Source: Candidatus Fervidifonticultor secundus
Lineage (GTDB): Bacteria > Sysuimicrobiota > Sysuimicrobiia > Sysuimicrobiales > Humicultoraceae
DNA length: 64,000 bases
Reading direction: 5' to 3'
Assembly: GCA_031459385.1 (NCBI GenBank)
Contig: JAVKIP010000014.1
Location: 13,717-77,716 of the forward strand
The notes under the pieces are model-generated. The model made no database searches and was not told the origin of the DNA. It worked only from the letters and a program-made list of their open reading frames with translations. Positions 9,134-55,385 of the stretch are shown here, in pieces (position 1 is the stretch's first letter; the number at the start of each line of letters is the position of its first letter). A program made the position numbers and the translations under genes.

Positions 9134-9243
9134 CTGCCCTTCCTCCTTTCCCGGCGGTGTCCGCACCCCGGGGGTTCGATGACGGCGACGAGAAACTCCT
9201 CCCCGTCACGTCCTCAGCGTAGGCGCCGCCGCGCGGCCGGACC

Positions 9244-9261
9244 ATCCGGCGCGGGCCCGAT
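9244..9261. promoter_or_regulatory. Palindromic regulon box upstream of the sugar ABC operon
   Basis: ATCCGG-cgcggg-CCCGAT; minus-strand -10 TACGCT (9221-9216) 22 nt away. Confidence 0.75.
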
Positions 9262-9425
9262 TCGGGGGCGTCCGCCGCGCGGCCGGCCACGGGACGGCGC
9301 CAACGCCAGCGGCGCCTGGTGACTGCCGGATGTCCAAAGCGCGGCGGGGGGCGCCGGGCCCGGGTCCCACCTTGGGGGCCGGCCCGGTCGGCGGGAGCGC
9401 CGCAGCCCGGCGCCCAGCGTCGGGC

Positions 9426-9875
9426 CTACTTGACCACGGGCAGGTTCGCCGCTTTCCAGCCGCCCAGGCCGCCGCGCAGGTTGCGCACGTTGGTGTAGCC
9501 CCACATGCGCAGGACCGTGGTCGCCATCGCCCCCCGCACGCCGACGGCGCAGTAGACGACGATGGGCGCGCCGCGGCTATCGGGCAGCTTGTCCAGCGCC
9601 TTGGGCAGCTCGCGGATCGGCACGTGCACGGCGCCGGCGATGCGTTCGGCGTCCCACTCGGCCTTCTCGCGCACGTCGAGCACCAGCGGCCTGGCCGTTT
9701 CCATCAGGCGTTCGGCCGCCAGAGGGTCGATCTGGTAGAAGTCCGCCGGCATGGTGGTCAGCACCCGCTCGGCAGCCGCCAGCAGCGGCTTCTCGATCCA
9801 CTCCTTGGTGACGACCGGCCCGACGAGCGTCAGGGCCAGAGCCACGGTCAGGACTGCGATCAAAGGTTTCCTCAT
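9426..9875 (-). CDS. Exported/membrane-anchored rhodanese (sulfurtransferase), Sud-like
   Basis: Signal-like N-terminus; LDVRE, active loop CAVGVRG, NLRGGLGGW; last gene of the psr operon. Confidence 0.88.
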   Translation of the reverse strand: MRKPLIAVLTVALALTLVGPVVTKEWIEKPLLAAAERVLTTMPADFYQIDPLAAERLMETARPLVLDVREKAEWDAERIAGAVHVPIRELPKALDKLPDSRGAPIVVYCAVGVRGAMATTVLRMWGYTNVRNLRGGLGGWKAANLPVVK

Positions 9876-10001
9876 CGATGTGTCCTCCTTTCGTGTGTTG
9901 GTGGGGTCCGTCACCTGCGACGGAACCCGCCGTTTGATGCCTCTGGCCGCGGCGCGCCGCTTCCGCCCCGCGGCGGTGCACCGCGGCCACGCCGTGCACT
10001 C

Positions 10002-11635: not shown

Positions 11636-11637
11636 CG

Positions 11638-14409: not shown

Positions 14410-14477
14410 ATCGGGGTTTCCCGGAGAGTTCGAAGGGAGTTTTCCCGACAGGGGGTCGAATCGGGCAGAGACCTGAT
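14410..14477. promoter_or_regulatory. Cluster of regulon boxes in the divergent psr/gltA promoter
   Basis: ATCGGG half-site 14410 (minus -10 CACCAT 22 nt away); GAAGGG-N6-CCCGAC 14432; ATCGGG-cagaga-CCTGAT 14460-14477 (-10 TAGACT 14501, 23 nt). Confidence 0.72.
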
Positions 14478-14568
14478 GGCCGGCTGTCGCGCGGGCGTTC
14501 TAGACTGACCTCGGACGTCGGCCTGAGCAGCCAGCAGCAAACCGTGGGCCGAGGGGGTGCGCGCAGTC

Positions 14569-15894
14569 ATGGGCAAGGACACGTTGACCATCATCGACAA
14601 CCGCACCGGGAGGACGTACGAGCTTCCCATCCTCTACGGGACCTATCCCCGGTACGGTGCGGCCATCCGGGCCATCGACCTGCGCCAGATCAAGGTGGAC
14701 GACCAGGACTTCGGGCTCATGAGCTACGATCCGGCGTTTCTCAACACGGCGTCGACCCGCAGCACCATCACGTTCATCGACGGCGAGCGAGGCATCCTGC
14801 GGTATCGCGGGTACCCGATCGAGGTGCTGGCGGAACGGGCGTCGTACCTGGAGGTCGCCTACCTCCTGCTGCACGGCGAGCTGCCTACCCGGGCGGAGCT
14901 GGACGCCTGGGTGCACGAGATTACCCACCACACGTTCATCCACGAGTCCATCAAGAAGTTCCTGGACGGGTTCCACTACGACGCGCACCCGATGGGCATG
15001 CTCATTGGCACCGTCGCCGCGCTGTCCACCTTCTACCCCGAGGCCAAGCAGATCCACGACCCGACGGTGCGGCGGCGGCAGATCGTACGCCTGCTGGCCA
15101 AGATGCCGACCATCGCGGCGTTTGCGTACCGGCACAGCCGTGGGCTGCCCTACGCGTATCCCGACAACGACCTCTCGTACACCGGCAACTTCCTCAACAT
15201 GCTCTTCAAGACCACCGAGGTGAAGTACGCGCCGCACCCGGTGCTGGAGCGGGCGCTGGATCGCCTCTTCATCCTGCACGCCGACCATGAGCAGAACTGC
15301 AGCACGAACGCCATGCGCGGCATCGGGAGCAGCCACGCCGACCCCTACTCGGCCCTGGCCGGCGCCGCCGCCGCCCTCTACGGGCCCCTGCACGGGGGCG
15401 CCAACGAGCAGGTGCTGCGCATGCTGCGGGAGATCGGCAGCAAGGACCGGGTGGGCAGCTACATCAAGCGGGTCAAGGCCGGCGAGGTCCTGCTCATGGG
15501 CTTCGGCCACCGCGTCTACAAGCACTACGACCCGCGGGCCCGGATTATCAAGCGGGTCGCAGACGAGGTGTTCACGGTGACCGGGGTCAACCCGCTGCTG
15601 GAGATTGCCCTGGAGCTGGAGCGCATCGCGCTGGAGGATGACTACTTCGTCACGCGCCGGCTCTACCCCAACGTCGACTTCTACTCAGGGATCATCTACC
15701 AGGCCATGGGGTTCCCGGTAGAGATGTTCCCGGTCCTGTTCGCCATTCCGCGCACCGCGGGCTGGCTGGCCCAGTGGGAGGAGCTGCTGGGGGATCCTGA
15801 GCAGAAGATCAGCCGGCCGCGCCAGCTCTACGTCGGGGCCGACCTACGCGACTACGTGTCCCTCGAGGCGCGGGGGGCGGGGCGGGCGGCTTAG
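14569..15894 (+). CDS. gltA: Citrate synthase (type II-like)
   Basis: LHADHEQNCST, GPLHGGAN, GFGHRVYK, YPNVDFYSG. Confidence 0.97.
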   Translation: MGKDTLTIIDNRTGRTYELPILYGTYPRYGAAIRAIDLRQIKVDDQDFGLMSYDPAFLNTASTRSTITFIDGERGILRYRGYPIEVLAERASYLEVAYLLLHGELPTRAELDAWVHEITHHTFIHESIKKFLDGFHYDAHPMGMLIGTVAALSTFYPEAKQIHDPTVRRRQIVRLLAKMPTIAAFAYRHSRGLPYAYPDNDLSYTGNFLNMLFKTTEVKYAPHPVLERALDRLFILHADHEQNCSTNAMRGIGSSHADPYSALAGAAAALYGPLHGGANEQVLRMLREIGSKDRVGSYIKRVKAGEVLLMGFGHRVYKHYDPRARIIKRVADEVFTVTGVNPLLEIALELERIALEDDYFVTRRLYPNVDFYSGIIYQAMGFPVEMFPVLFAIPRTAGWLAQWEELLGDPEQKISRPRQLYVGADLRDYVSLEARGAGRAA

Positions 15895-18747: not shown

Positions 18748-19410
18748 TCAGACGTCGGCGCCCAGCAGTCCCCGCCGCAGCGCGTAGCGCACCAGCTCGG
18801 CGCGCGTGCGCAGCTCCAGCTTCTCGAGGATGCGCGCGCGGTAGGTCTCGACGCTCTTGGGGCTCAGGTAGAGCCGTTTGGCGATCTCGCGCGCCGTGTA
18901 GCCTGCGGCGACCAGCTTCAGGACCTCGCGTTCCCGCTCGGAGAGCCGGTCGTAGCCGTCCTGTTCCTCCCCGACCTGCACACGCGCCACGAAGTCCTCC
19001 AGCAGGGCGCGCGTGGCAGTGGGGTGGAGGTAGGCGCCCCCTGCCGCCACGGTGCGGATGGCGGCGATGAGCTCAACGTCGGCCGCGGTCTTGTTGACGT
19101 ATCCCGCGGCACCGGCCTTCAGCACGGGGAACAGGTAGCGCTCCTGGGCGTGCACGGTGAGGATCAGGACGTGGGTGTTGACGCCGAGGTCGCGGATCTG
19201 TCGCGTCGCCTCCAGGCCGTCCATCTCCGGCATGCCGATGTCCATCACCACCACGTCCGGGCGCACCTGGGCGGCCATCGCCACGGCCTCGCGGCCCGTG
19301 GAGGCTTCGCCGACTACCGCCATGTCGGGTTCGTGCTCGAGCAGTGCCCGCAGTCCGGCGCGCAGCACCGGGTGGTCGTCGGCCAGCAGCACCCGAATCC
19401 GGTCAGTCAC
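18748..19410 (-). CDS. NarL/LuxR-family (NreC-like) response regulator
   Basis: LADDH, MDIGMP, GYVNK, LSEREREVL...LSPKSVETYRARILEKL; GTG 19410 with GGAGG. Confidence 0.95.
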   Translation of the reverse strand: MTDRIRVLLADDHPVLRAGLRALLEHEPDMAVVGEASTGREAVAMAAQVRPDVVVMDIGMPEMDGLEATRQIRDLGVNTHVLILTVHAQERYLFPVLKAGAAGYVNKTAADVELIAAIRTVAAGGAYLHPTATRALLEDFVARVQVGEEQDGYDRLSEREREVLKLVAAGYTAREIAKRLYLSPKSVETYRARILEKLELRTRAELVRYALRRGLLGADV

Positions 19411-20524
19411 GGCCGGTGCCTCCTGCGCCACCGTCGTGCACCGGGGCCCAGGCCGTGATGGTGGTGCCGGTGCCCGGCGCCGAGCGCACCTCGAGGCGTC
19501 CCCCGACCAGCGCGATGCGCTCGGCCATCCCGGCCAGCCCCAGCCCGCCGGCGTTCCCGTTGCCCGCGGCTGGCGTCGCGGGCAGCCCCCGCGTGGGCCC
19601 GGCGCGGGCTGGATCGAAGCCGATGCCGTCGTCGGAGACTTCCAGGGACACGCCGTCCGGCCCGCGGCGCAGACATACGTCGGCCCGCGTCGCCTGGCCG
19701 TGGCGGCGTGCGTTGGTCAGGGCCTCCTGGGCGATGCGGTAGAGCGCCAGCTCGATCTCTGCCGGCAGCCGCCGGTCGAGGCCCGTCGCCGCCACCGTGA
19801 CGCGCATGCCGCCGGCAGCGTTGATCTCGTCCGCGTGAGCCGCCAGCGCCGCGGCCAGCCCCAGGTCGTCTAGCACCGACGGGCGCAGCTCCACCGCGAT
19901 GCGGCGCACGTCGTCCAGCGCGCGGGCGGTCAGCGCGCGCAGCTCGCGCACCCGCGCCCGGACCTGCGCTGGCTCACTCGCCTGGTCCAGCAGCCGCAGC
20001 CGCACCAGGAGCGAGGTGAGCGCCTGCGCCGCCTCGTCGTGCAGCTCGCGTGCGATGCGCCGTCGCTCCTCTTCCTGCGCGCGGAGGATCTGCCCCGGCA
20101 GGCGGCGGAGCTGCTCGGTGTGCTCGTCCAATGCGGCCACCATGTGGTCGAAGGTATCGGCCAGGTGTTCCAGGCGCTCGTCCCACAGGCCGTCGCGCGC
20201 GACGCGCACCCCGGTGGCGCCGGCGCGCACCGCGTCCACCGCGCGCTGCAGGTGCTCGAGCGGGCGCAACACCGCCCGCAGCACCAGGAAGTTGGCCAGG
20301 ACGCTGGCCGCCACGCCGGCCAAGAGGAAGCCAGCGATCAGCTCGTAGTGCGGCGACGACGGGTGGGTGGCGCCGTGCCGCACCGCAACCAGGGTGCCGC
20401 CGACGGCGCCGATCACGATGATGGCGGCATTGGCGCCCAGGATCCTGTGCAGAATGGGCACGCGCCGCCACAGCCCGGGCCACCAGCCCGTCCGCCTCAC
20501 GCGCGCGTCCCCCTGCAGGCCCAC
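19403..20524 (-). CDS. HisKA_3 sensor histidine kinase (2 TM, HAMP)
   Basis: EEERRRIARELHDE, RPSVLDDLGL, QEALTNARRH, DDGIGF, GLGLAGMAER. Confidence 0.93.
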   Translation of the reverse strand: MGLQGDARVRRTGWWPGLWRRVPILHRILGANAAIIVIGAVGGTLVAVRHGATHPSSPHYELIAGFLLAGVAASVLANFLVLRAVLRPLEHLQRAVDAVRAGATGVRVARDGLWDERLEHLADTFDHMVAALDEHTEQLRRLPGQILRAQEEERRRIARELHDEAAQALTSLLVRLRLLDQASEPAQVRARVRELRALTARALDDVRRIAVELRPSVLDDLGLAAALAAHADEINAAGGMRVTVAATGLDRRLPAEIELALYRIAQEALTNARRHGQATRADVCLRRGPDGVSLEVSDDGIGFDPARAGPTRGLPATPAAGNGNAGGLGLAGMAERIALVGGRLEVRSAPGTGTTITAWAPVHDGGAGGTGRD

Positions 20525-20533
20525 TGCCCGCGT

Positions 20534-21838
20534 CTACCCCGTGGCGGCCAGGCCGCCCGGTGCGATGCGCCGGTGCGCCTGCGCCACGAGCTGTTGCCGA
20601 TAGGCCTGCAGGTCGATGGGATACCGGGCGACGCCGTCGGCGATGGCCGCCTCGGCCACGGCCGGCGCCACCCAGACCAGGACCCGCGGGTCCAGGGGCT
20701 TGGGGAGGAAGTAGTCGGGGCCGAACGTCAGGCTCGCGAGCCCGTAGGCCTCGAGCACCGACAGCGGCACGTCCTCCTTCGCCAGCGCGGCCAGCGCCCG
20801 GGCCGCGGCGATCTTCATGCGCTCGGTGATGGCTCGCGCCCGCACGTCCAGGGCGCCGCGGAAGACGAAGGGAAACGCCAGCACGTTGTTCACCTGGTTG
20901 GGATCGTCGGACCGCCCTGTGGCCATGAGGACGTCGGGGCGCGCGGCCCGGGCCTCGGCGTACGAGATCTCCGGGTCCGGGTTGGCCATGGCGAAGATGA
21001 TGGGGCGGGCCGCCATGCGCTGCACCATCTCGGGCGAGACGATTCCGCCCACCGACAGGCCGACGAAGACGTCGGCGCCGTCCAGGGCCTCGGCCAGGGT
21101 GCGCGCGCGCGTCTCCACCGCGAATCGTTGCTTGTACGGGTTCATGTTGGTGGCGCGCCCGGCGTAGACCACGCCGGTGGTGTCCACCAGCATGGTGTGC
21201 TCGCGCGGCATGCCCAGCTCGACGAAGAACGCCGCCGTGGCGATGGCGGAGGCGCCGGCGCCGCTGATGACCGCGCGGACGCCGTGGAGGGGCTTGTCGG
21301 CCAGCTCCAGGGCGTTGAGCAGCGCGGCGCCGGTGACGATGGCGGTGCCGTGCTGGTCATCGTGGAACACGGGGATGTCCAGCAGGGCGCGCAGCCGTTC
21401 CTCGATGATGAAGCAGTCGGGGGCCTTGATGTCCTCCAGGTTGATGCCGCCGAACGTGGGGGTCAGCGCCCGCACGGTGCGGACCACGTCGTCGGGATCG
21501 GCGGCGTCGAGCTCCAGATCGAACACGTCGATGTCGGCGAAGGTCTTGAACAGCAGGGCCTTGCCTTCCATGACGGGCTTGGCTGCCAGGGGGCCGACGT
21601 TCCCTAGCCCGAGCACGGCCGTGCCGTTGCTGACCACGGCCACCAGGTTGCCCCGGGCCGTGTACCGGTACGCGGCGGCGGGGTCCAGATGGATCTCGCG
21701 GACCGCCTCGGCCACCCCGGGTGTGTACGCCAGGCTCAGGTCTCGCTGCCCGGCACAGGGCTTGGTGATGGAGATGGCCAACTTCCCCGGTCGTCCCCGG
21801 GCGTGATACTCCAGGGCTTCCTCACGGGTGATCTGCAC
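20534..21838 (-). CDS. NAD(P)-dependent malic enzyme (MaeB-type ME domain, no PTA domain)
   Basis: [44 protein letters not shown] 21838 with GGAGG. Confidence 0.93.
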
Positions 21839-21901
21839 GGATGCGCCTCCAGGGCAACAGATTGCTCCTGTTTCAGCGTAGCGAGGGCGCGCCCGCGCTC
21901 C

Positions 21902-21976
21902 ATCGGGCAGGAGCCCGATTTTCCCCGGCGCCGGGACCACGGCGCGCGCCCGGCGTGGATCGGCTCGGCACCCGAT
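21902..21976. promoter_or_regulatory. Two regulon boxes in the divergent malic enzyme-TCS / usp promoter
   Basis: ATCGGG-caggag-CCCGAT 21902-21919 (minus -10 TACGCT, 21 nt); ATCGGC-tcggca-CCCGAT 21959-21976 (-10 TATCGT, 22 nt). Confidence 0.85.
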
Positions 21977-22041
21977 GGCCGACCGCGCCCGTCCAGCCTA
22001 TCGTCAAGATGGGTGGATGCACAAAGGATGGGGTGAGACCC

Positions 22042-22554
22042 ATGATGAAGCTGCAGCGCATTCTCGTGGGCACGGATATGTCAGAGGTCTCGCCGGCGCT
22101 GTATACGCTGGCGCAGACGCTGGCCCGCCAGTCCGGTGCGCATCTCGTCGTGGCGTATATCGCCGACCCCGAGGAGTACGACGAGATCCGCCGGGAACGG
22201 CCCATGGGCATCGACGAATTCGTTGATCGCTTCCGCACCAGCATCCTGGCGGACTTCGAGGACGCCACCGGCGGCCGCAAGCAGCCCGTCCAGGTCGAGG
22301 TGCGCATGCGGCAGCGGGGCGTGGCCGAGGATCTGCTGCAGGTCGCAGCCGACGTGCAGGCCGATCTGATCGTCGTCGGCACGCACGGCCGCACCGGCCT
22401 GCGGCGCGTCCTGCTGGGCAGCGTTGCCGAAGCGGTGGTGCGCCACGCCACCATGCCGGTGCTGGTGGTGCCGCAGGCGGCGGCGGTGCAGGCCGCGGTG
22501 CCCGCGGCGACGACCGCCGTGCCGGCGGGGACGGCGGGGAACCAGGGAGGCTAG
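22042..22554 (+). CDS. Universal stress protein
   Basis: RILVGTD, ADLIVVGTHGRTG, LLGSVAEAVVRHA. Confidence 0.93.
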   Translation: MMKLQRILVGTDMSEVSPALYTLAQTLARQSGAHLVVAYIADPEEYDEIRRERPMGIDEFVDRFRTSILADFEDATGGRKQPVQVEVRMRQRGVAEDLLQVAADVQADLIVVGTHGRTGLRRVLLGSVAEAVVRHATMPVLVVPQAAAVQAAVPAATTAVPAGTAGNQGG

Positions 22555-24200
22555 TCAAGCCCCCGGACGGTTCCGTCCCCGTCCAGGTCGATCTCCCATG
22601 CTCGCGGCCGTGCCGGGAGGGCGGGCATGGTCATGACGTCGCCCACCAGCACCAGGACGAACCCGGCGCCGCCTCGCACAGCGACCTCCCGTACCGGTAG
22701 CGTGAAGCCTTCGGGCACGCCGCGGATGTGGGGCCGGTCGGTGAGGGAGTACTGTGTCTTGGCAATGCACACCGGCAGGCGGCCGAATCCTCGGCGCTCG
22801 GCGTCCTCCAGCTGTCGCGCGGCTGTCTCCGCGAAGGCCACGCCTGCGGCACCGTAGATCTGCCGGGCCACGGCCTCGACCTTCGCGCGCAGCGGGGTGT
22901 CGGGACCGTAGAGCCGGCCGCCCTCCGGCAGCGGGCCGCGCGCCGCCGCCTCCTGCACCAGGCGCGCCAGGTCTTCGGCCCCGGCCCCGCCGGTGTGGTA
23001 CGCGTCACAGACGGCCGCCGGGACACCCTGCGCCCTGGCGGCGGCCAGGATGGCGTCGATCTCCCCGGCGGTGTCGGAGGCAAACCGGTTGACGCACACG
23101 ACCGGGCGCATCCCGAGCCGCTGCACGATCTGCACGTGGTGGCGCAGCTGCGGCAGGCCGGCCGTCACCGCCTCGAGGTCGGGAACGCTCAGGCGATCCG
23201 CCGCGGCGCCGCCGTGGTGTCGCAGCGCCCGGACGGTGACCACTACCACCGCAGCTGCGGGCTGCGGGCCGCCACAGGCGCCGACGACGTTTGCGAACTT
23301 CTCCGCCCCCAGATCGGCGCCGAAGCCCGCCTCGACCACGGCGAACTCCGCGAGGGCACGCGCCAGGCGCAGCGAGAGGAGCGAGCTCGTGCCGTGGGCG
23401 ATGTTCCCGAAGGGGCCGGCGTGGACCAGGGCGGGCCCGCCCTCCTGCGTTTGCACCAGGTTGGGCTGCAGCGCATCGCGCAGCAGGACGGCCATGGCGC
23501 CGGCGGCGCGCAGATCGTCGGCGGTGACTGGCGTTCCGTCCCGGGTCGTCCCCACGATGATGCGGCCCAGCCGCCGGCGCAGGTCGGCGTAGTCAGCGGC
23601 CAGCGCCAGCACGGCCATTACCTCGGAGGCGGCCGTAATGTCGAAGTGCTCCTCCCGCACTACGCCGCCCAGCCCGACCACGGCGTGGCGCAGGGCCCGG
23701 TCGTTCACGTCGAGCACGCGGCGGTGCGTCACCTGCCGGGGGTCCAGCAGCGGGTCGCGCCTGCGGTGGAGGTGATCGTCGAGCATGGCGGCCAGCAGGT
23801 TGTTGGCCGCGGTGACGGCGTGGAAGTCGCCGGTGAAGTGCAGGTTGATCGCGACGGCCGGCTCCACCGTGCATCGGCCGCCCCCGGTGGCGCCGCCCTT
23901 CATGCCGAAGACCGGACCCAGGGAGGGCTGCCGGAGACACAGCACGGTGCGCGCGCCCAGACGCCGCAGGCCCTGGGCCAGCCCGATGGCCGTCACGGTC
24001 TTGCCCTCGCCCGGCGGGGTCGGGGTGATCGCCGTGACCAGCACGACGTGGCCCCCGGGGCGGCTTGTGCGCCGCGCCAGGGCCTCCAGACGCACCTTGG
24101 CCGCGTGGAGGCCGTACGGGACGATCTCCGCCGGCTCGAGGCCAGCCTCGGCCGCGACTTCTGCGATCGGGCGCAGGACCCGCGGTAGTGTGGTGGACAC
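22551..24200 (-). CDS. fhs: Formate--tetrahydrofolate ligase
   Basis: TPPGEGKT, RQPSLGPVFGMKGGATGGG, INLHFTGD, HAGPFGNIAHG, CIAKTQYS; start approximate. Confidence 0.95.
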   Translation of the reverse strand: MSTTLPRVLRPIAEVAAEAGLEPAEIVPYGLHAAKVRLEALARRTSRPGGHVVLVTAITPTPPGEGKTVTAIGLAQGLRRLGARTVLCLRQPSLGPVFGMKGGATGGGRCTVEPAVAINLHFTGDFHAVTAANNLLAAMLDDHLHRRRDPLLDPRQVTHRRVLDVNDRALRHAVVGLGGVVREEHFDITAASEVMAVLALAADYADLRRRLGRIIVGTTRDGTPVTADDLRAAGAMAVLLRDALQPNLVQTQEGGPALVHAGPFGNIAHGTSSLLSLRLARALAEFAVVEAGFGADLGAEKFANVVGACGGPQPAAAVVVVTVRALRHHGGAAADRLSVPDLEAVTAGLPQLRHHVQIVQRLGMRPVVCVNRFASDTAGEIDAILAAARAQGVPAAVCDAYHTGGAGAEDLARLVQEAAARGPLPEGGRLYGPDTPLRAKVEAVARQIYGAAGVAFAETAARQLEDAERRGFGRLPVCIAKTQYSLTDRPHIRGVPEGFTLPVREVAVRGGAGFVLVLVGDVMTMPALPARPRAWEIDLDGDGTVRGLD

Positions 24201-24360
24201 CAGAGGCCCTCCTTCCGGTCGGCGCGCGTACCGGCGCCCTGTCGTGCGTGCGACGACTGCCCTCCGCCGCGCTCCGACGTCGGCTGGCCGGGCCCGCGCC
24301 GACTGGTGCGCCGTCAGGACCGCGTCGCGTTCAGGGTACGGAGCGCCCGCCCGTGGCGCC

Positions 24361-24378
24361 ATCGGGCGCGAGCCCGAT
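24361..24378. promoter_or_regulatory. Perfect regulon box centred between two divergent -10 elements
   Basis: ATCGGG-cgcgag-CCCGAT; TACCCT (minus, 24338-24333) and CATGCT (plus, 24401-24406) each 22 nt away. Confidence 0.85.
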
Positions 24379-24444
24379 TGGACACCGTCGGGGCCCGTGG
24401 CATGCTGGAGCCGACGAGCTCATCGTCCGGGAGGAGGGACGGGC

Positions 24445-28299: not shown

Positions 28300-28323
28300 A
28301 GGGAGCCGGGCACAGGGGATGAC

Positions 28324-28341
28324 ATCGGGCGCCGACCCGAT
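28324..28341. promoter_or_regulatory. Perfect regulon box next to the oppA fragment
   Basis: ATCGGG-cgccga-CCCGAT. Confidence 0.75.
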
Positions 28342-28749: not shown

Positions 28750-28790
28750 GACCGTTGGCTTCACCATACGCGCAGGGCGTGCCCACGTGA

Positions 28791-28895
28791 ATCGGGCTGT
28801 CGCCTGATGGGCGACCGCGGTGTGCCCCGCCTCGGCCTCGTGGCCGAGCGGGAAATCGGGCCGCCGCCTGATGCGGATTCGGCGGCGCGGCCGAT
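28791..28895. promoter_or_regulatory. Array of four regulon boxes in the divergent REC/CBS-ACT promoter
   Basis: ATCGGG-N6-CCTGAT 28791; CTCGGC-N6-GCCGAG 28831; ATCGGG-N6-CCTGAT 28855; TTCGGC-N6-GCCGAT 28878; -10 TATGGT (minus, 22 nt) and TACACT (plus, 23 nt). Confidence 0.82.
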
Positions 28896-38570: not shown

Positions 38571-38616
38571 GTCCGGCGGTGGCCCGATGCCGGCCGCCTC
38601 ACCCGCGGGCTAGAAT
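38571..38616 (+). promoter_or_regulatory. Regulon box plus -10 of the aeRF1-like gene
   Basis: GTCCGG-cggtgg-CCCGAT 38571-38588, 22 nt, TAGAAT 38611-38616. Confidence 0.75.
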
Positions 38617-41137: not shown

Positions 41138-41312
41138 GCCCCTCACCCCCGTTGCCCGCAGAGTTCGGGGTGCCAGGGACGGCCTCCTGGAACGCTGCCG
41201 CGGCGGCCGATGTCGCCTGCGCCCGGCCGGCTCGTGGCTGCCATCCGGAGCAGGTGCTACCATGGCGGTACCGGCGTATTGCCCGCAGGGCGGGCACTCC
41301 AGGGGGAGGCAG

Positions 41313-42383
41313 ATGCTCACCGCTGCTGACGTGATGACGACGCGGCCGGTGGTCGTTGCCGTGTCGACGACCGTGGCCGAGGCCATCCGGCTCATGCACG
41401 AGCGGGGGATCTCCAGCGTGCTGGTCGCGCCCGCGGTTGGGGCCGCTGACCACGGCATCGTGACCATGCGGGACGTGGTCACGAAGATCGTCACGGAAGG
41501 GTTCGACCCGGATACCCTGACCGTCGGCGATATCATGACGTGGCGCCTGGTCACGGCCCGGCCCGCATGGCCGCTCCGCCGGATCGCGGAGGTCATGGCG
41601 CAGGCCCGGGTCCGCCGCCTGCCGGTGGTGGACGGGGGCGCATTGGTCGGCGTGGTGAGCGACACCGACCTGTTCACCGCACTGGTGCCGCGCCACGACT
41701 GGGAGCACGTGCGGCGGGTGCGCAAGGAACGGGCCCGCCACCGGACCCGCCGCTCCGACCCCGCCAGGACGGTAGGCGACATCATGTCGGCGCCGGTGCT
41801 CACCATCGACCGCGAGGCCACCGTGGCGGCCGCCGTGCGCAAGATGGTGGCGGCCGGCATCAGCAGCCTGCTGGTGACTGACGTGCCCGGCGGCGGCATT
41901 CTCACCAAGCGCGACGTCGTCCTCAAGGTGGTGGCCGCCGGCGGCGACCCGGAGCGGATCACCGTGGGTACCCTGATGTCCGCGCCGGTCCGCGCTGTGG
42001 AGGTCGAGACCACCATCGAGGAATGCTCGCGGCGGATGGGCGACCTGCGCGTGCGCCGTTTCCCCGTCACCCGGGCCGGGGAGACCGCGGGCATCGTCAG
42101 CGACTCCGACATCCTGGCAGCCGTCGCCGGCGCCCGGTGGATGGGCCGCCGGCGGGGGCCCACGGCCGCCATCGCCGCCGACGTGATGCGCCCGTCGGCG
42201 GCCGTCCCGCTCTCCGCTGGCGCGGAGGCGCTGAGCCCGGAGCTCTCGATCTGGGAGTGTGCGGCGCGGCTGGCCCGCGCCGGCGCCCGCGAACTGCCCG
42301 TGGTCCAGCAGGGACGGGTCATCGGTGTCGTCGGCGAAGCCGACATCGTCCGGGCTCTGGCGGAGCGTGGCGGACCTGACTGA
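41313..42383 (+). CDS. Multi-CBS protein (two CBS pairs plus one extra CBS)
   Basis: Repeated ISSVLV/GIVTMRDVV/RRLPVV/GVVSDTDL units. Confidence 0.9.
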   Translation: MLTAADVMTTRPVVVAVSTTVAEAIRLMHERGISSVLVAPAVGAADHGIVTMRDVVTKIVTEGFDPDTLTVGDIMTWRLVTARPAWPLRRIAEVMAQARVRRLPVVDGGALVGVVSDTDLFTALVPRHDWEHVRRVRKERARHRTRRSDPARTVGDIMSAPVLTIDREATVAAAVRKMVAAGISSLLVTDVPGGGILTKRDVVLKVVAAGGDPERITVGTLMSAPVRAVEVETTIEECSRRMGDLRVRRFPVTRAGETAGIVSDSDILAAVAGARWMGRRRGPTAAIAADVMRPSAAVPLSAGAEALSPELSIWECAARLARAGARELPVVQQGRVIGVVGEADIVRALAERGGPD

Positions 42384-42519
42384 CGGGGCAAGATCGTCGA
42401 CGCGCCCTACGCCTCTTGCCGGGAGATGATCCGCCGAAGCGGTCCCGGGGTCCGTTCAAGGGCCCACACCGGCGCGCGCGGCGGGCGGGCGTCCGTCGGC
42501 GTGCGTCCGCCGCCCGCAG

Positions 42520-45557: not shown

Positions 45558-46145
45558 TCAGGCCTGCTGGCGTGCCGGCGCCGCGGTCCTCTTGAAGACC
45601 CGCCCGGGCCGCCACGGCGTGCCCAGTAGCGGCAGCAGGTAGTAGTCCAGACCGATGTACCCGGCGACCTTCCAGGCCAGGATCAGCAGGATCGCCAGGA
45701 GGAACATGACCGGATTGGTGCTGGCGGTGCCTGCCATCATGAAGTTCCAGTTCATGAACGCGCCGAAGAAGGCCGCGATCCCGGTGAAGATCCCCAGCAC
45801 CAGCGCGATCCCGACCAGCAGCTCGCCCCAGGCCACCAGCTTGGCGAACCAGGTATGCGTCTCGGTGGCCAGCAGGTAGTTGATGAAGTCGCGATACCAG
45901 TCGAACGCGATGGGCGGACGGCCCCGCGCCGGAATCTGGACGGCGCGCTCCCAGAAGCCCTTGACCGCGGCACCGGTGACCACCCAGTCGGGGTCGTTCA
46001 CCTTGTGCAGCGCCGCATCGATCCACTGCCAGCCCACCCAGACGCGCACGATCAGCCACAGCCAGACCACCCTGGTGCTGCTGAAGAGGAACGTGGCCAG
46101 CGGGGGATCCTGGATCTCCGTCCGGCCGACGTTGACTTTCGCCAT
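45558..46145 (-). CDS. DoxX/DoxD-family membrane protein
   Basis: RVWVGWQWI, WYRDF, GELLVGIALVLG, MNWNFMMAGTASTNP, GLD. Confidence 0.88.
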   Translation of the reverse strand: MAKVNVGRTEIQDPPLATFLFSSTRVVWLWLIVRVWVGWQWIDAALHKVNDPDWVVTGAAVKGFWERAVQIPARGRPPIAFDWYRDFINYLLATETHTWFAKLVAWGELLVGIALVLGIFTGIAAFFGAFMNWNFMMAGTASTNPVMFLLAILLILAWKVAGYIGLDYYLLPLLGTPWRPGRVFKRTAAPARQQA

Positions 46146-46195
46146 CGTTCCTCACCTCCCGTCTTGCAGGCTACGGGCAGACCGATAGCGTCGGT

Positions 46196-46248
46196 ATCGG
46201 GCGCAAGTTCGATTTTTGGCCCGGGCCCCCCTCCGGCGGGGGCCCGAT
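46196..46248. promoter_or_regulatory. Two regulon boxes in the divergent doxX / ytfJ-like promoter
   Basis: ATCGGG-cgcaag-TTCGAT 46196 (minus -10 TAGCCT, 22 nt); CTCCGG-N6-CCCGAT 46231-46248 (-10 TATCCT, 21 nt). Confidence 0.75.
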
Positions 46249-46316
46249 GTCCGCCCCGGGGCGAGACGGTATCCTGGAGCCGGGATCGGTTGTCGGCTCC
46301 CGAGGAGGCGAGGGGC

Positions 46317-46697
46317 ATGCTGGAGGATCTGATCGGGCGCATCGCGCGCATCGACGAACAGGCCACGGTCAAGACGGTCTTTGGCGATCCCATCCGGGCC
46401 GATGGCCGCACCCTTGTGCCGGTCGCCAGAGTAGCCTACGGGTTCGGCTTCGGCCTGGGCCGCAATCAGGAGAAGGAGCAGGGGACCGAGGAGACCGGCG
46501 AGGGTGGCGGGGGCGGGGGCGGCGCCTGGGTGCGGCCGATGGCGGTCCTGGAGATCACCGACGCCGGCACCAGGGTCCGGCCGATCGTGGACGTGACGCG
46601 GCTCGTGCTGGCCGGCCTGGCGCTGGTAGCGTGGAACGTCTTCTGGGTCGCCTACACCGTGCGGGCGGTCGAGCGCGCCCGCGCGCGGCGGGCGTAG
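46317..46697 (+). CDS. YtfJ/GerW-family protein
   Basis: TVFGDPI, TLVPVARVAYGFGFG, GGGGGGG..VRPMAVL. Confidence 0.85.
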   Translation: MLEDLIGRIARIDEQATVKTVFGDPIRADGRTLVPVARVAYGFGFGLGRNQEKEQGTEETGEGGGGGGGAWVRPMAVLEITDAGTRVRPIVDVTRLVLAGLALVAWNVFWVAYTVRAVERARARRA

Positions 46698-46725: not shown

Positions 46726-48000
46726 TCAAAGCAGCAGGGCCGCCAGTGCCACCGTCCCGGCCACCACGGCCGCGCCCTGCACGACCACGAGCGTGCGACG
46801 GAACGGGGCGCTGCCCAGCCAGAGGGCATACGCGGCCTTGGCTGCAGTGTTGGCGAGAACGGCCAGCGCAATTGCGCTCGCCGCCACCTCTGGGCGGAGA
46901 TGGCGGCCAGCTGCGCTGGCCAGCGCCAGCGTGATCGCGTCCACGTCGGTCAGGCCGGCGAGCACTGCGGCAGCTACCACGCCCCACGCGCCCGTGTAGC
47001 GCGACGCCGCTTCTACGGCCAGCAGCACCAGCGCGTAGAGCGCGGTGAAGCGGATGGCCTGCGACAGCCGGAACGGGCTGGCCACACCCGGCGCTGCCTC
47101 GCGCGCTGGTGCGCCCCGCCGGGCCAGCACCGCCACGGTTGCCACACCACCGGCCAGCGCGGCGCCGAGGAACGGCGCGAGTCCGGGCAGTACCGCCGGC
47201 CCCGCGATAGCCGTCAGCGTGCCGACGCGCACCAGCATGACCAGCGACGCCAGACCCGCAGCGACGGCCAGCGGGGTGGCCCGCGCCGGTTCCTCCCGGG
47301 AGCGCGTCGCGAACGACACGGTGACCGCCGTGCTGGAGACCAGGCCGCCCAGCAGCCCGCTGACGTACAGCCCGCGCGCTTCCCCCCAGATTCGCATCCC
47401 GATGAACGCCAGGAACGAGAAACCGCAGACCAGCACGACTATGCCCCAGAGGTGGCGCGGGTTCCACACGCCCCAGGGACCGTAGCGCGCGTCGGGGAGG
47501 AGGGGGAGCACGACCGCCGCGATCACCGCCAGCACCAGCGCTGCCCGGACCTCGTCGCGGCTCAGCCCGCGCGGGAACGCCTCCAGGCGCTCTTTGGACG
47601 CCAGCAGCACCGTCATGCCGATGCCCAGGACGGCCGCCGGCAGCAGTGCGCCGGCGCCAGCCAGCACCCCGACCCAGTACGTAGCCAGCGCCGCGGTCTC
47701 GGTGGTCGTGCCGATGTCGCTGCGGCTGCTGCGGAAATACGAGACGGTGACCAGTGCGGCCACGGCCACGAACCCGGTGATCACGGCCACACCGATCTGC
47801 CCCGATGCCAGGACCAGGACCGCTCCGAGGACGCAGAACAGGGGAAACGTCCTGACGCCTGCGAACTGGGGCGTGCCCGCACCCTCGGCGCGCTCCCGCT
47901 CGATGCCGATCAGGCCGCCGAGCGCCGCCGCCACCATCAGCCGCAGGAGGATGGACTCGGTCGCCTCGGCAGGCTGGAAGAGGTCGAGCCCGCCAGTCAT
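46726..48000 (-). CDS. MgtC/SapB plus DUF4010 membrane protein
   Basis: GGLIGIERE, AGVRTF, GTTTE, GGLVSSTA, GLTDVDAI. Confidence 0.9.
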   Translation of the reverse strand: MTGGLDLFQPAEATESILLRLMVAAALGGLIGIERERAEGAGTPQFAGVRTFPLFCVLGAVLVLASGQIGVAVITGFVAVAALVTVSYFRSSRSDIGTTTETAALATYWVGVLAGAGALLPAAVLGIGMTVLLASKERLEAFPRGLSRDEVRAALVLAVIAAVVLPLLPDARYGPWGVWNPRHLWGIVVLVCGFSFLAFIGMRIWGEARGLYVSGLLGGLVSSTAVTVSFATRSREEPARATPLAVAAGLASLVMLVRVGTLTAIAGPAVLPGLAPFLGAALAGGVATVAVLARRGAPAREAAPGVASPFRLSQAIRFTALYALVLLAVEAASRYTGAWGVVAAAVLAGLTDVDAITLALASAAGRHLRPEVAASAIALAVLANTAAKAAYALWLGSAPFRRTLVVVQGAAVVAGTVALAALLL

Positions 48001-48239: not shown

Positions 48240-48384
48240 CTCGGCCGGCCGCCCGATTTCTCCCCTCGGGCCGGCAGCCGACCGGCGGTGGGGGGTGCGC
48301 GGTACGACGGGAGCGCGGGCGCGGCCGGCCCCGGGCGGGCCGGGTGGGCACCCGATGGCGCGCTGCCGCCGGTCGTGCCATGCT
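48240..48384. promoter_or_regulatory. Three regulon boxes plus the -10 of ybaK paralog 2
   Basis: CTCGGC-N6-CCCGAT 48240; CTCGGG-N6-GCCGAC 48265; GCCGGG-N6-CCCGAT 48339-48356, 22 nt, TG-C-CATGCT 48379. Confidence 0.75.
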
Positions 48385-48430: not shown

Positions 48431-48904
48431 GTGACCTGCCGCGAGCGCCTGGAGCAGATGTTCAGGAACGCACAGGTAGCCTACCGCGTCACGCCCCACC
48501 CGCCCGCCTTCACCGCGCAGGAGATCGCCGCCGCCGAGCACGTAAGCGGCTACGAGGTCGCCAAGGTCGTAATGGCCCTGGCCGACGACCGCTTGGTGAT
48601 GCTCGTGCTGCCCGCCCCGTACCGCGTGGACCTGGTGCGGCTGAAGCAGCAGCTCGGCGCGGCGGCTGTGCGTCTGGCGCACGAGCGCGAGTTCGCCAAC
48701 GTCTTCCCCGACTGCGAGGTCGGCGCCATGCCGCCGTTCGGCAACCTCTACAACATTCCCGTGTACGTCGACCGCGCGCTGACGGCCGACCGGGAGATTA
48801 CGTTCAACGCCGGCTCGCACCGCGAGACCATGACCGTCGCCTACGCGGATTTCGAGCGGCTGGCGCAACCCACAGTGCTGGAGTTCGCCCGCGGCCCCCG
48901 GTGA
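48431..48904 (+). CDS. YbaK/EbsC-family aminoacyl-tRNA deacylase (paralog 2)
   Basis: AKVVM, FPDCEVGAMPPFG, FNAGSH. Confidence 0.9.
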   Translation: MTCRERLEQMFRNAQVAYRVTPHPPAFTAQEIAAAEHVSGYEVAKVVMALADDRLVMLVLPAPYRVDLVRLKQQLGAAAVRLAHEREFANVFPDCEVGAMPPFGNLYNIPVYVDRALTADREITFNAGSHRETMTVAYADFERLAQPTVLEFARGPR

Positions 48905-50757: not shown

Positions 50758-51201
50758 TCAGTGCGTGTGCGCCGCCTCGGCTTGGCGCAGGCGCTGCGAC
50801 AGCGTGCGCATCACCTTCGCGGCCAGCGTGGGTGCCTCGGACACCAGCGTCCAGAACTCGCGGTGCCCGATCACGAGGAGCCGCATGGGGGTCGCGGCGT
50901 CCACCGTGGCCGAGCGCGGGCCGCCGTCTATCAGGCTCATCTCACCGAAGAACTCGCCGGGACCCAGGCGCACCGTGCGGCCGTTGGGGAGGCGCACGGT
51001 CGCCTGGCCTTCGACGATGACGTACAGCTCGTGCCCGGGCTGGCCGACGGCAGCCAGGCGCTTCCCCTGCGGGACCTCCACCTCATCGGCCAGACGCGCC
51101 ACCCGCTGCAGCTGGGCCGCCGAGAGGGCGGCGAACAGGGGAACCTTCTGGAGCAGCGCAACCTTACCCGACGCCGACCGCCAGATCCGCACAGCGCTCA
51201 C
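50758..51201 (-). CDS. Stand-alone cyclic nucleotide-binding domain protein
   Basis: LQKVPLFAALS, GEFFGEMSLIDGGPRSATV; no HTH. Confidence 0.9.
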   Translation of the reverse strand: MSAVRIWRSASGKVALLQKVPLFAALSAAQLQRVARLADEVEVPQGKRLAAVGQPGHELYVIVEGQATVRLPNGRTVRLGPGEFFGEMSLIDGGPRSATVDAATPMRLLVIGHREFWTLVSEAPTLAAKVMRTLSQRLRQAEAAHTH

Positions 51202-52489: not shown

Positions 52490-53314
52490 CTACCCCTTCA
52501 CCGCGCCGGCCGTCAGCCCGTGGATGAAGTGCTGCGCGAGCAGCACGTACAGGCCCACGATGGGCACCGCGGCCAGCGTCAGGCCCGCGAACAGGGTGGC
52601 GTAGTCGGTGTAGTACTGGCCGAAGAAGACGGTCATGCCCTGCGGCAGCGTCTTGCGCGCGTCGGACTGGATGAAGACCAGCGGGAAGAAGAAGTCGTTC
52701 CAGATGGGGATGGCGTTATAGATCGTCACGATGACCAGCGCGGGTCGCACCAGCGGCAGCATGATGCGCGTGAAGATCGTCCACTCGCTGGCCCCGTCGA
52801 TGCGCGCCGCCCCCTCCAGGTCGGCGGGCAGCGTGCGGAAGAAGCCCGTGAGGATGAAGATGGCGCTGGGCAGGCCCGAGGCCGCGTAGACCAGGATCAG
52901 CGACCACAGCGAGTCCAGCAGGCCCAGGTTGCGCATGAGGATGAAGAGCGGCACAATCCCCAGGCGCACGGGCAGCATGAGCCCGCTGAGGAAGTAGAGG
53001 TAGAGGACGTCCCCGCCGCGGAAGGCGAACCGCCCCAGCGCGTAGCCGGCCATGGCGCCCAGGGCCACCAGCACCACGACCGACGCGACGGTGACGATCA
53101 CGCTGTTCTGGAAGTACGCGCCGAAGCGCGCCTCCACCCAGACCCGCTGGAAGTTGTCCGCGCGCCAGACCGCCGGCAGGCCGAAGGGATTCTGGAAGAT
53201 CTCCCGCGTCGACTTGAACGCCGACAGCACCATGATACCCACAGGCGCCAGGACCAGCAGGGCGTTGGCCGCCAGCACCGCCTGGACGACGGGCGTCCAC
53301 CCCGACCGGCGCAT
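52490..53314 (-). CDS. Carbohydrate ABC permease (MalG-like)
   Basis: AGYALGR, LEGAARIDGA EAA loop, WNDFFFPL. Confidence 0.93.
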   Translation of the reverse strand: MRRSGWTPVVQAVLAANALLVLAPVGIMVLSAFKSTREIFQNPFGLPAVWRADNFQRVWVEARFGAYFQNSVIVTVASVVVLVALGAMAGYALGRFAFRGGDVLYLYFLSGLMLPVRLGIVPLFILMRNLGLLDSLWSLILVYAASGLPSAIFILTGFFRTLPADLEGAARIDGASEWTIFTRIMLPLVRPALVIVTIYNAIPIWNDFFFPLVFIQSDARKTLPQGMTVFFGQYYTDYATLFAGLTLAAVPIVGLYVLLAQHFIHGLTAGAVKG

Positions 53315-54056
53315 CAGACGCCGCCTCGGCTGCGCGGTTAAACGAGCCGATGAAGGTCAAAATGACGATGATCGTCACCGCAGGCGCCAGCAGCGGCAGG
53401 ATGATCCGCCGCGTTACCTCCCACTCCGAGGCGCCGTCGATGCGCGCGGCCTCCAGGTAGTCGTCGGGCACGGCGTGGATCCCGGCCAGGAAGACCAGGG
53501 TGGGGAAGCCCAACCACCGCCACGCGTTCACCAGCACCAGCGTCACCAACGCCGTGGCCGGGTCGCCCAGCCACGGCCGGGCTAGGTGGCCGAGGCCGGC
53601 CAGCGCCAGCGCCTTGTTGACGACGCCGAAGATCGGATTGAGGAAGAGCGCCCACAGGAAGCCCACGATCACCAGCGACAGGGTCACGGGCAGGAAGAAG
53701 ATGACCCGGTAGGCTCGGGCGCCCCACGGGCCGCGGGCCAGCAGCAGGGCCAGGCCCAGCGCGGTCAGGTTCTGGATCCCCATGGTGAGGACGAACACCA
53801 CCACGTTGTGCCAGAAGGCGTTCCACAGCAGCCGCGGGTAGGGGAATGTCGCGACCAGCCGGGCGAAGTTGCCGAGCCCGATGAACTCCCGCCGGCCGAT
53901 CCCCTCCCAGCGGAAGAGGCTGTAGGCCAGCGCCGACAGGATCGGGTAGGTGATGAAGGTCGCGAAGAGCAGGCCGGCCGGCGCCAGGAAGATCAGCAGC
54001 CACAGGCGCCGGCCGGTCCGGAGGCTCAGGCGCGGGCGCCTACCGCCTGAAGGCAT
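53313..54056 (-). pseudogene. Carbohydrate ABC permease (MalF-like), 3' end deleted/frameshifted
   Basis: EAARIDGA present; homology stops at TFIGSFN, the last loop and TM helix are missing and the frame runs into the next gene. Confidence 0.8.
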
Positions 54057-55293
54057 CCACCCAGGAGGCCAGTCCCCGCGTAACCTCCTCGCCCACCTGT
54101 TGCGGCGTCATCTGGCCGGCCAGCATGGCCTGCAGGGCGCTCTGCAGCAGGGTCGACCCCGTCGGCGTCTGCCAGCGGAACCCGACCAGCATGATATAGG
54201 GCGTGGCCTTGCGGTTCATCTCCTGCACGCGCTTCAACACCGGATCCTTGATGACGACCCCGGGCACCGCCGACATCTGGGCCAGCAGATCGGTGAACAT
54301 CTGCCCGAACTCGGTGGTGGCCGTGAAGCGGATGAACTTCAGCGCCGCGTCCATGTGCGCCGTCCTGGCATTGATGCCGTAGTTGCCGTCGGCGAACGAC
54401 GAGACCCACGGGAGCTGGTCCGCCCGGGGCGGCGGGCCGGGGAAGACATCGAAGTCCAGGTTCTTGTTCTGCTGCTTGAAGAACCCGATCTCCCATGCGC
54501 CGCCGATGAACATGGCAGCCTGCTCGTTCAGGAAGAGCTGCTGCATCGTGGCGTAGTCGACGCCCATGAAGCCCTGCGGCATGTAGGGCCGCAGGTCCAG
54601 CAGCCTGGCCAGGGCGCCGGTGTACGTCGGGTCGCGGAACGTGGTCTGGCCGCGCGTGACGGCCTCGAAGAACGTCGTGCCGCCGTAGAAGTTGGGCGCG
54701 ATCACGCCCGAGACGACCTCCAGCGTCCAGCCGTCCTTGCCGCCGTTGGCCAGTGGGGTGATCCCCTTGTCTTTCAGGGTCTTCATCAGGCCCAGGAAGC
54801 CGTCCCAGTCGCGCGGCACCGAGACGCCGGCTTCCCGGAAGATGCTCTTGTTGTAGAAGATGACCAGCGTCTGGGTCGCGAACGGCACGCCGTAGATCTT
54901 GCCGTCCTTGCGGCTGCGGGCGCCGACCATCGTCTGCAGCGGGAAGCGCCGCAGTTCGGGCACCTGGTCGTAGCTCAGGGGCGCCAGGAACCCCGGAGCC
55001 GCGAACTGCTCCAGGCCGCCGTACGCCCGCAGGTGGATGATGTCAGGCCCCCGGCCCGCCTGCAGGGCCGACGAGAGGATCGTGTTGTACTCCACCTGCC
55101 GGAACGGGACGAACTCCACGCTGATCCCGAGGTTGCGCTGCTCGAAGACCCGGATCATCCGGTCGTAGGCCTACTTGTCCTCGGTCCGCCAGCTCCAGAA
55201 CGTGAGCTTCACGGGCGCCTGCGCCTGCACCACCGATGTGGTGGTCGCCACCAGCAGGGCGCCCAGGACGAGTGCCAGCACACGTCGCCTCAC
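54040..55293 (-). pseudogene. Carbohydrate ABC substrate-binding protein interrupted by an in-frame TAG at codon 41
   Basis: GGAGGAGG + GTG 55293, signal peptide, LTFWSWRTEDK*AYDRMI; TAG at 55173-55171. Confidence 0.85.
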
Positions 55294-55352
55294 GGCGGGG
55301 TCCCTCCTCCTCGGCTGCGCCGCGGCCCGCCTTCTGCGGCCGCGCACCCTTG

Positions 55353-55385
55353 AGTATGCCAGATGCGCCTGTCGGCGCGATCGGG
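55353..55385 (-). promoter_or_regulatory. Regulon-type half box plus -10 upstream of the carbohydrate ABC locus
   Basis: ATCGGG 55380-55385; minus -10 CATACT 55358-55353, 21 nt. Confidence 0.45.

Follow-up and report, generated by a model that had tools for sequence, protein, structure and literature searches.

A conserved 18-bp palindrome at a fixed distance from -10 elements marks a predicted low-oxygen/redox regulon in Sysuimicrobiota

In Mycobacterium tuberculosis, the DosR box is centred at -43.5 beside a suboptimal -35 element, and residues K179, K182 and N183 of the protein read GGGACT (PMC13486717). Dev boxes are described as palindromes of 18-20 bp whose halves each read G4G5G6A7C8T9, and they occur in tandem, in phase with the DNA helix (PMC3177182). 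OsdR of Streptomyces coelicolor has the consensus AGGGCCGATCGGCCCT, and its regulon includes universal stress proteins (USPs), PPDK, enoyl-CoA hydratase and nitrate reductase (PMC5069765). In staphylococci, the Fe-S cluster kinases of NreBC and AirSR are cytoplasmic, cysteine-dependent oxygen/redox sensors that act through NarL-family regulators, which activate genes of nitrate/nitrite respiration or redox functions (PMC8774646). Here we describe a palindrome, ATCGGG-N6-CCCGAT (the box), that recurs in a 64,000-nt stretch of Candidatus Fervidifonticultor secundus (assembly GCA_031459385.1, contig JAVKIP010000014.1, positions 13,717 to 77,716; G000:C6:13717-77716 in our genome set), referred to as the window, and elsewhere in the same genome and phylum. 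An earlier annotation of this DNA, the original prediction, had not recognised the box as a described motif, and it is indeed a genuine, unrecorded regulatory motif.

The source genome (G000) is a 3.3-Mb draft with 72% GC. It belongs to CSP1-3, or Sysuimicrobiota, a group of uncultured, facultatively anaerobic bacteria of hot springs and soil described in a paper in which the name 'Candidatus Fervidifonticultor' is used (PMC11604079); the closest named relatives are metagenome-assembled genomes under the labels Armatimonadota and 'Candidatus Fervidifonticultor'. The phylum set comprised 94 species genomes, which form one order in the genome collection; phylum-wide tallies take in the unpublished genomes G010 and G044, and G010 also entered the mismatch-box counts and the reading of GerE frames. 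Boxes were called by mismatch count against dinucleotide shuffles and by a weight matrix (scores in bits) that was trained partly on the same window sites that were then scored. The reversed box pattern was the control for conservation counts. Gene calls were crude, and the caller over-extended the starts of open reading frames (ORFs) in this 72% GC DNA.

Four perfect 18-mers were present in the window at 21902, 24361, 28324 and 33592, all as originally predicted, compared with none in 100 dinucleotide shuffles. At two or fewer mismatches the window held 17 matches (shuffle mean 5.7, maximum 15), and at 12 bits or more the weight matrix found 12 sites (mean 0.44, maximum 2 in 50 shuffles). Genome-wide, 12 perfect boxes were found in G000, while the best of the 119 other half-site permutations gave five (median 0). 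Eight of the 12 lay outside the crude gene calls, where any other permutation gave at most two, and the other four were inside over-extended ORF starts. When spacings from N2 to N10 were compared in G000, enrichment outside called genes was seen for N6 only. The extended consensus was a-ATCGGG-Y-N4-R-CCCGAT-t, with information limited to 18-20 bp in a 6-6-6 layout. The box sites of G000 clustered on few contigs, namely C6 (the window contig), C14, C58, C30 and C45.

The original prediction had listed 21 box places in the window, all of them taken to be intergenic. Fourteen of these scored at least 6.9 bits (9244, 14460, 21902, 21959, 24361, 28324, 28791, 28855, 33592, 38571, 46196, 46231, 48240 and 48339), and all 14 lie between genes once the over-extended ORF starts are trimmed. 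The other seven (14410, at -12 bits, and 26008, 28831, 28878, 33617, 48265 and 55380) were no better than chance by box alone under the weight matrix. Two of them, 28878 and 33617, each have a strong box 23-25 bp away and may act as secondary sites.

The distance between the box and a -10 element was also fixed, as had been claimed. A TANNNT hexamer was located 21-23 nt from the box edge at 25 of the 39 G000 sites of at least 14 bits, compared with 1.0% of random non-coding positions (P about 1e-40), and at 18 of those 25 sites the distance was exactly 22 nt. Because the weight matrix was trained on the box alone, the -10 spacing is an independent signal. The combination CCCGAT-N22-TANNNT occurred in 18 copies, compared with 0-5 for each spacing between 10 and 40 other than 21-23. 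Among the 29 CCCGAT-TANNNT cases at 21-23 nt, 22 kept the distal half with two or fewer mismatches, and the half-site-only promoters, seven over three spacings, are therefore at the background rate. The spacer between box and -10 was GC-rich and had no -35 consensus. The promoter-distal flank of the box was A-rich (aaaa, caaa, gaaa) in this 72% GC genome and may be a UP-like element or an extension of the site. With the hexamer at -12 to -7, the box would extend from about -52 to -35 and be centred at -43.5 if transcription starts about 7 nt past the hexamer. This predicted position, 22 nt from the -10 and with no -35 consensus, fits the class II activation proposed originally.

Boxes also occurred in pairs, at distances of 22-25 bp (17 pairs), 31-35 bp (7), 43-44 bp (3) and 53-57 bp (9), and the 53-57 bp class consists of divergent promoters back to back. 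Start codons were found 4-130 nt past the -10 hexamer. At three promoters (window 21999-22011, G000 C45:110387 and C58:58552), only 4-8 nt separate the -10 from the first in-frame start; these likely represent leaderless mRNAs or mis-set start codons.

The box is conserved. A perfect copy occurred in 28 of 31 relatives and, at the scale of the phylum, in 82 of 94 genomes; the reversed pattern was found in none of them. In loci from relatives, 42 of 76 boxes had TANNNT within 21-23 nt, and in 30 of these the distance was 22 nt. Four Chloroflexota genomes showed no box enrichment (26, 33, 9 and 19 boxes against 14, 9, 5 and 24 in the control). Elsewhere in G000, the box faces a cupredoxin gene adjoining a molybdenum (Mo)-oxidoreductase cluster and two Rrf2 genes, which closely precede nosZ in one case and a nirK-like copper oxidase in the other. 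Other targets in G000 were hemerythrin, CBS, GAPDH, a branched-chain amino-acid ABC system, a DevR-like two-component system, and an enoyl-CoA hydratase with two Cys-rich PAS regulators; no box was assigned to a nitroreductase on C14. In other families of the phylum, boxes preceded nosZ, nirK, PFOR, ADP-forming acetyl-CoA synthetase, malic enzyme-PTA, CBS-BON and a radical SAM enzyme, as well as regulatory genes (a sigma-70 factor, MerR, AsnC, GAF kinases and NarL-type regulators). Both nosZ and nirK were behind boxes in G022. These two genes were reported to be horizontally acquired in the phylum (PMC11604079), and they carry the box despite that origin. The box gene set is a low-oxygen, fermentation and dormancy set that overlaps the DosR and OsdR regulons.

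These data are best explained by a dimeric activator that would bind the 18-bp palindrome 22 nt upstream of a TANNNT -10 and replace the missing -35. Located at about -52 to -35, it would recruit RNA polymerase as a class II activator; the symmetric box could serve two divergent promoters, and extra boxes would be placed about 23-25, 32-35, 43-44 or 53-57 bp away. The regulon would be a low-oxygen/redox programme conserved across CSP1-3. Its anaerobic respiration arm would include nosZ, nirK, Mo-oxidoreductases and hydrogenase maturation; its fermentative and anaplerotic carbon arm PFOR, ADP-forming acetyl-CoA synthetase, malic enzyme, PPDK, GAPDH, citrate synthase and fhs; and its dormancy arm USPs, CBS and CBS-BON proteins and a ribosome hibernation factor, with several regulators in addition. 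That the box is a real activator-type operator is very probable. Taken whole, the reading of an activator operator of a low-oxygen/redox regulon, bound by a LuxR/NarL-type protein for which the C13 type described below is the best candidate, is in our judgement evenly balanced between right and wrong.

The size of the inverted repeat and its predicted geometry in the -35 region are as for LuxR/NarL/FixJ-type regulators, with binding and autoregulation putative here, and the binder is probably a LuxR/NarL-type helix-turn-helix (HTH) protein. Four paralogous NarL-type response regulators with differing recognition helices were found in G000. The best single candidate among them would be the regulator on C13 (G000:C13:19637-20290), encoded with a soluble GAF-HisKA_3 kinase (20266-21465), and not the regulator in the window. 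The C13-type regulator was present in 69 of 94 genomes (E <=1e-85), which had a mean of 4.7 perfect boxes compared with 1.6 in the other 25. In a hand tally of genomes at least 92% complete, the mean was 5.5 boxes with the C13 type (n=43) and 1.2 without it (n=12). Upstream of the C13-type gene, 10 of 20 sampled genomes, plus G004 and G084, had a box scoring 12 bits or more within 250 nt. On metagenome contigs carrying a C13-type regulator at least 67% identical, a box was found within 450 nt upstream in 14 of 18 cases (P = 1.6e-8 at local box density); among loci of more distant homologues, only 9 of 62 had any box. In the partner kinase, the motif G[ED]CRC-x20-C together with RH[AV][ST] was invariant in 11 sequences down to 41% identity (orthologues L128-L146). 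When this kinase was compared with solved GAF sensors including DevS/DosT, its GAF domain gave no sequence match, and only the ATPase domain matched. From this distribution and context, the C13-type protein is put forward as the specific binder tentatively, at a level short of probable.

Other LuxR-type proteins in G000 were weighed for the same role. The original prediction had assigned the box to the phosphorylated form of the window regulator (18748-19431), a NarL-type protein that shares the operon behind perfect box 21902 with a kinase; the close relatives L014, L015, L016, L018 and L069 also have a box or weak box upstream of this operon. This assignment did not survive the phyletic comparison and is highly unlikely to be correct, since orthologues (at least 74% identity) occurred in 12 of 94 genomes, a perfect box was still present in 71 of the 82 genomes lacking one, and the Chloroflexota homologues, 65-70% identical, had no box nearby in genomes that show no enrichment. 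Homologues of the window regulator 62-71% identical were seen in many Chloroflexota metagenome-assembled genomes (Anaerolineae, Caldilineaceae; loci L022-L066), and this unusually high cross-phylum identity suggests transfer or strong constraint. The regulator on C30 (G000:C30:2273-5222, L007) had DevR (3c3w, E = 5e-55) as its best solved match, with an identical EKTVKNY recognition helix; it is paired with a dCache-HAMP-GAF kinase in an operon behind a 1-mismatch box, and G000 has no canonical Dev boxes outside genes. This DosR/DevR orthologue was found in 10 of 94 genomes, compared with 82 for the box, and not in the two same-genus genomes, so it looks horizontally acquired; given also that DosR and OsdR sites have the spacing GGG-N8-CCC (PMC3177182, PMC5069765) and not N6, it was rejected, and its being the binder is barely conceivable. 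The PAS-LuxR protein on C58 (G000:C58:56199-56870) is attractive, as its PAS domain has five conserved Cys (C-x15-CC-x2-C...C) that are kept in G096 and G098, two genomes without the C13 type. It was rejected as the single binder on its distribution, with matches at E up to 1e-30 in 34 of 94 genomes and at least 59% identity in 11. It belongs to locus L005 (G000:C58:56199-58569), where a perfect box precedes the enoyl-CoA hydratase and two one-component regulators, the second being a winged-helix protein with a Cys-rich PAS domain; both could be Fe-S or redox sensors fused to DNA-binding domains. It is also conceivable, and we think quite unlikely, that several such paralogues (the C13 GAF system, the window system and the C58 PAS-LuxR) use the box jointly, each passing its own signal to a common regulon. 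In G000 or relatives, each of these genes belongs to an operon preceded by a box, and taken together the groups reach more genomes than any one of them; however, the helices KTVQTHR, KSVETYR and VTVRTHV differ at the positions of the DosR base contacts (PMC13486717), and the box-rich genomes G009 and G022 have only the C13 type.

Several points weigh against the C13-type protein and the reading built on it. Kinship among the genomes inflates all of the cross-genome statistics given here. The C13-type operon had no upstream box in G000, G002, G009, G007, G003 and G022, and 19 of the 25 genomes lacking a C13-type orthologue kept at least one perfect box. The well-assembled genomes G098 and G096 had no LuxR-type protein of the C13 helix type (15 GerE frames in G098, G096 and G010), and their boxes at one or fewer mismatches numbered 11 against 2 and 7 against 0 in the control; these include promoters orthologous to those of G097, with a TA(C/G)GAT hexamer at 24 nt. 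As a check for loss of the -10 in the absence of the C13-type regulator, TANNNT at 21-23 nt was counted within this genus: 4 of 22 boxes had it in G097, and none did in G098 (11 boxes) or G096 (7 boxes), a difference that was not significant, with other hexamers and a 24-nt spacing there. The box-driven regulator genes comprise three two-component systems, two Rrf2, a PAS-LuxR, a MerR, an AsnC, a sigma factor and a lone receiver, and box adjacency is therefore not specific for autoregulation. No LuxR-type orthologue group was as widespread as the box. What the sequence data establish is the motif, with its enrichment, spacing, conservation and gene content; that it activates, where transcripts begin, what the signal is and which protein binds are inferences. 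An activator of another family, or an unrecognised phylum-universal DNA-binding protein with the LuxR-types behind boxes as mere regulon members, would accommodate the spread to 82 of 94 genomes, the boxes of G098 and G096 and the many regulators among the targets; several box-driven CBS proteins also have about 75 uncharacterised N-terminal residues. We regard such an activator as unlikely, since no candidate for it was found and an 18-20 bp palindrome near -43 is typical of LuxR/NarL-type proteins (DosR, PMC13486717). Loci around the boxes were also inspected in five genomes without these regulators, and none of the four types was found nearby. CRP/FNR was rejected because no G000 protein with both a cyclic nucleotide (cNMP)-binding domain and a CRP-type HTH was found. 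Five cNMP_binding matches in G000 fell in short frames of 99-254 amino acids (aa), among them window 50758-51201(-), C3:2358 and C58:18095; the two that were read (the window frame and C58:18095) were stand-alone, about 150 aa, and had no HTH, and the HTH_Crp_2 matches examined (3 of 12) were GntR/FCD or other winged-helix proteins. Rrf2 proteins (NsrR/IscR/RsrR) were rejected on site layout, since their full sites are inverted repeats of about 25 bp arranged 11-3-11 (PMC5015018), compared with 6-6-6 for the box. The box might instead be the operator of a repressor, for example a redox-sensing one, as a site at -52 to -35 could also block polymerase. Rex-type repressors have 18-bp 6-N6-6 palindromes and similar gene sets, with a half-site sequence unlike the box. 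A repressor needs no fixed -10 register, yet 18 of 25 hexamers were at exactly 22 nt at promoters without a -35, and we give this explanation only a remote chance.

Coming back to the activator operator, its predicted promoters in the window are listed in Table 1. The original prediction had joined these genes into a single regulon. The sugar ABC genes, gltA, the malic enzyme operon, fhs, the USPs, the CBS proteins, both YbaK-like genes and the aeRF1-like factor held up as members, and two others were not supported. For polysulfide respiration, the Mo-oxidoreductase operon has only a half-site (14410) and a CACCAT hexamer. For the 6S-like RNA, Rfam gave no 6S match in the window at E up to 1, and the half-site promoter is of the background type. 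The aeRF1-like factor matched baeRF family 10 and the NCBIfam MSMEG_1130 and Rv2629 ribosome-hibernation-factor models, each below its cut-off. Rv2629 is a DosR-regulon gene in M. tuberculosis.

Table 1. Boxes in the window, their -10 hexamers and predicted targets (strand in brackets; distance from box edge to hexamer)
Box	Mismatches	Bits	-10 hexamer	Distance (nt)	Predicted target	Remark
9244-9261	1	21.5	TACGCT 9216-9221(-)	22	sugar-type periplasmic binding protein 8099-9166(-); ABC transporter genes 4539-8297(-)	
14460-14477	1	22.2	TAGACT 14501-14506(+)	23	citrate synthase 14557-15894(+)	
21902-21919	perfect	26.3	TACGCT 21875-21880(-)	21	operon: malic enzyme 20534-21838(-), HisKA_3 kinase 19403-20524(-), NarL-type regulator 18748-19431(-)	
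21959-21976	1	18.0	TATCGT 21999-22004(+)	22	universal stress protein 22009-22554(+)	57 bp from 21902 box
24361-24378, minus side	perfect		TACCCT 24333-24338(-)	22	formate-tetrahydrofolate ligase (fhs) 22551-24200(-)	serves both directions
24361-24378, plus side	perfect		CATGCT 24401-24406(+)	22	YbaK-like editing protein 24445-24939(+)	serves both directions
28324-28341	perfect	25.8	TATCAC 28295-28300(-)	23	family-5, peptide-type solute-binding protein 26956-28269(-)	imperfect -10
28791-28808	1	21.1	TATGGT 28763-28768(-)	22	stand-alone receiver-like protein 28384-28749(-)	
28855-28872		24.3			see next row	strong box of tandem pair 28855-28895, 23 bp apart
28878-28895		5.5	TACACT 28919-28924(+)	23	CBS-pair protein 28957-29631(+)	weak box of the pair; distance from this box
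33592-33609	perfect	24.3	TACGCT 33564-33569(-)	22	CBS protein 33028-33522(-); DeoC-type aldolase 32350-33018(-)	
33617		3.3			faces USP 33697-34176(+)	weak; only a poor -10
38571-38588	2	9.4	TAGAAT 38611-38616(+)	22	baeRF-type ribosome hibernation factor 38674-39780(+)	promoter-proximal half perfect
46196-46213	2	14.9	TAGCCT 46168-46173(-)	22	DoxX-family protein 45558-46145(-)	
46231-46248	2	14.3	TATCCT 46270-46275(+)	21	YtfJ-like protein 46290-46697(+)	35 bp from 46196 box
48240-48257	2	17.3			uncertain; upstream of MgtC/DUF4010 protein 46726-48000(-)	neither side has a clean -10 at 21-23 nt
48339-48356	2	6.9	CATGCT 48379-48384(+)	22	second YbaK-like protein 48431-48904(+)	weak; proximal half perfect

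No Rfam model reached its gathering score in the window. Two sub-threshold matches were unrelated to the boxes: M23 at 57756-57805, and a Mg riboswitch-like match at 7939-8057(-) near the 5' end of an ABC ATPase gene, which scored 28.5 bits where the gathering score is 40 (E = 0.15) and is probably due to chance. At 39752-42391(-), an 879-aa ORF with coding-like third-position GC (GC3 0.90) had no Pfam or NCBIfam match; it overlaps an opposite-strand 445-aa ORF with similar statistics, and either may be the real gene.

CSP1-3 has no cultured member, and the box gives a readout, from sequence only, of genes that would be switched together in these facultative anaerobes, including the N2O and nitrite reductases relevant to nitrogen cycling. 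Two genomic surveys of the phylum do not discuss regulation: PMC11604079 has no word that starts with 'regulat', and PMC11962464 does not mention regulons, response regulators, DosR, promoters, two-component systems or universal stress. The regulon offers a testable candidate for an oxygen/redox sensor and a case of a DosR-like dormancy/anaerobiosis programme on a different operator. The box also helps to place promoters and correct start codons in metagenome genomes of 72% GC, whose ORFs are over-extended by gene calling; about a dozen promoters are marked in the window, with dozens more across the genome and phylum. More speculatively, and with less confidence than we attach to the C13-type binder, the phylum may run its aerobic/anaerobic switch through one previously unseen regulator-operator pair, in which a soluble Cys-motif GAF kinase (perhaps with a metal or Fe-S cofactor) would sense oxygen or redox state and its NarL-type partner would bind the box at -43.5. 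This system would have arisen independently of DosRST, FNR and NreBC and would have wired in the horizontally acquired nirK and nosZ as well as fhs, a gene of the reductive glycine pathway.

The class of mechanism proposed here is familiar, and the operator, the phylum-wide regulon and the candidate Cys-GAF sensor are new. The system resembles DosR/DevR of M. tuberculosis in its GC-rich palindrome with an invariant GGG/CCC per half, in a proximal site centred at -43.5 (the predicted position here) with a weak or absent -35 (PMC13486717), in sites that are tandem and in phase (PMC3177182), and in a regulon clustered in the genome. The targets shared with DosR or OsdR include USPs, a CBS protein, an Rv2629-type factor, PPDK, enoyl-CoA hydratase and anaerobic respiration genes (PMC5069765), and the best candidate regulator here is likewise a NarL-family protein with a soluble GAF-type kinase. 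However, judged by its sequence the box is not a Dev box, because its half-sites are one base nearer the dyad on each side (GGG-N6-CCC compared with GGG-N8-CCC). Its conserved bases are outside the GGG (ATC), whereas those of the Dev box are inside (AC), and the two GGGAC-N4-GTCCC sequences of Dev-box type in G000 are both inside called genes. The true DevR orthologue is confined to 10 of 94 genomes, the candidate regulator has another recognition helix, and the candidate kinase has one Cys-rich GAF domain with no sequence match to the GAF domains of DevS/DosT.

The candidate pair is similar to NreBC in that a Cys-motif cytoplasmic kinase, with a predicted redox-sensing role here, is joined to a NarL-family regulator. 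NreB senses through a PAS domain, in contrast to the GAF domain with CxC-x20-C and a putative cofactor; box sequence and spacing differ as well, and the regulon described here is much broader. NreC binds the GC-rich palindrome TAGGG-N4-CCCTA. The box shares with class II FNR/CRP sites a dimer palindrome overlapping the -35 of anaerobic-metabolism promoters and the possibility of divergent promoters, but its half-sites are unrelated to TTGAT or TGTGA, and its predicted centre is at -43.5 and not at -41.5, the centre of class II FNR/CRP sites. The PAS-LuxR protein PimM, a regulator of a biosynthetic cluster, binds CTVGGGAWWTCCCBAG boxes overlapping the -35. It is thus alike in placing a LuxR-type HTH on GGG...CCC at the -35, and a Cys-rich PAS-LuxR is itself a box target here; the PimM box differs in its N4 spacing compared with N6, and a biosynthetic cluster is controlled there where the box would mark a global regulon.

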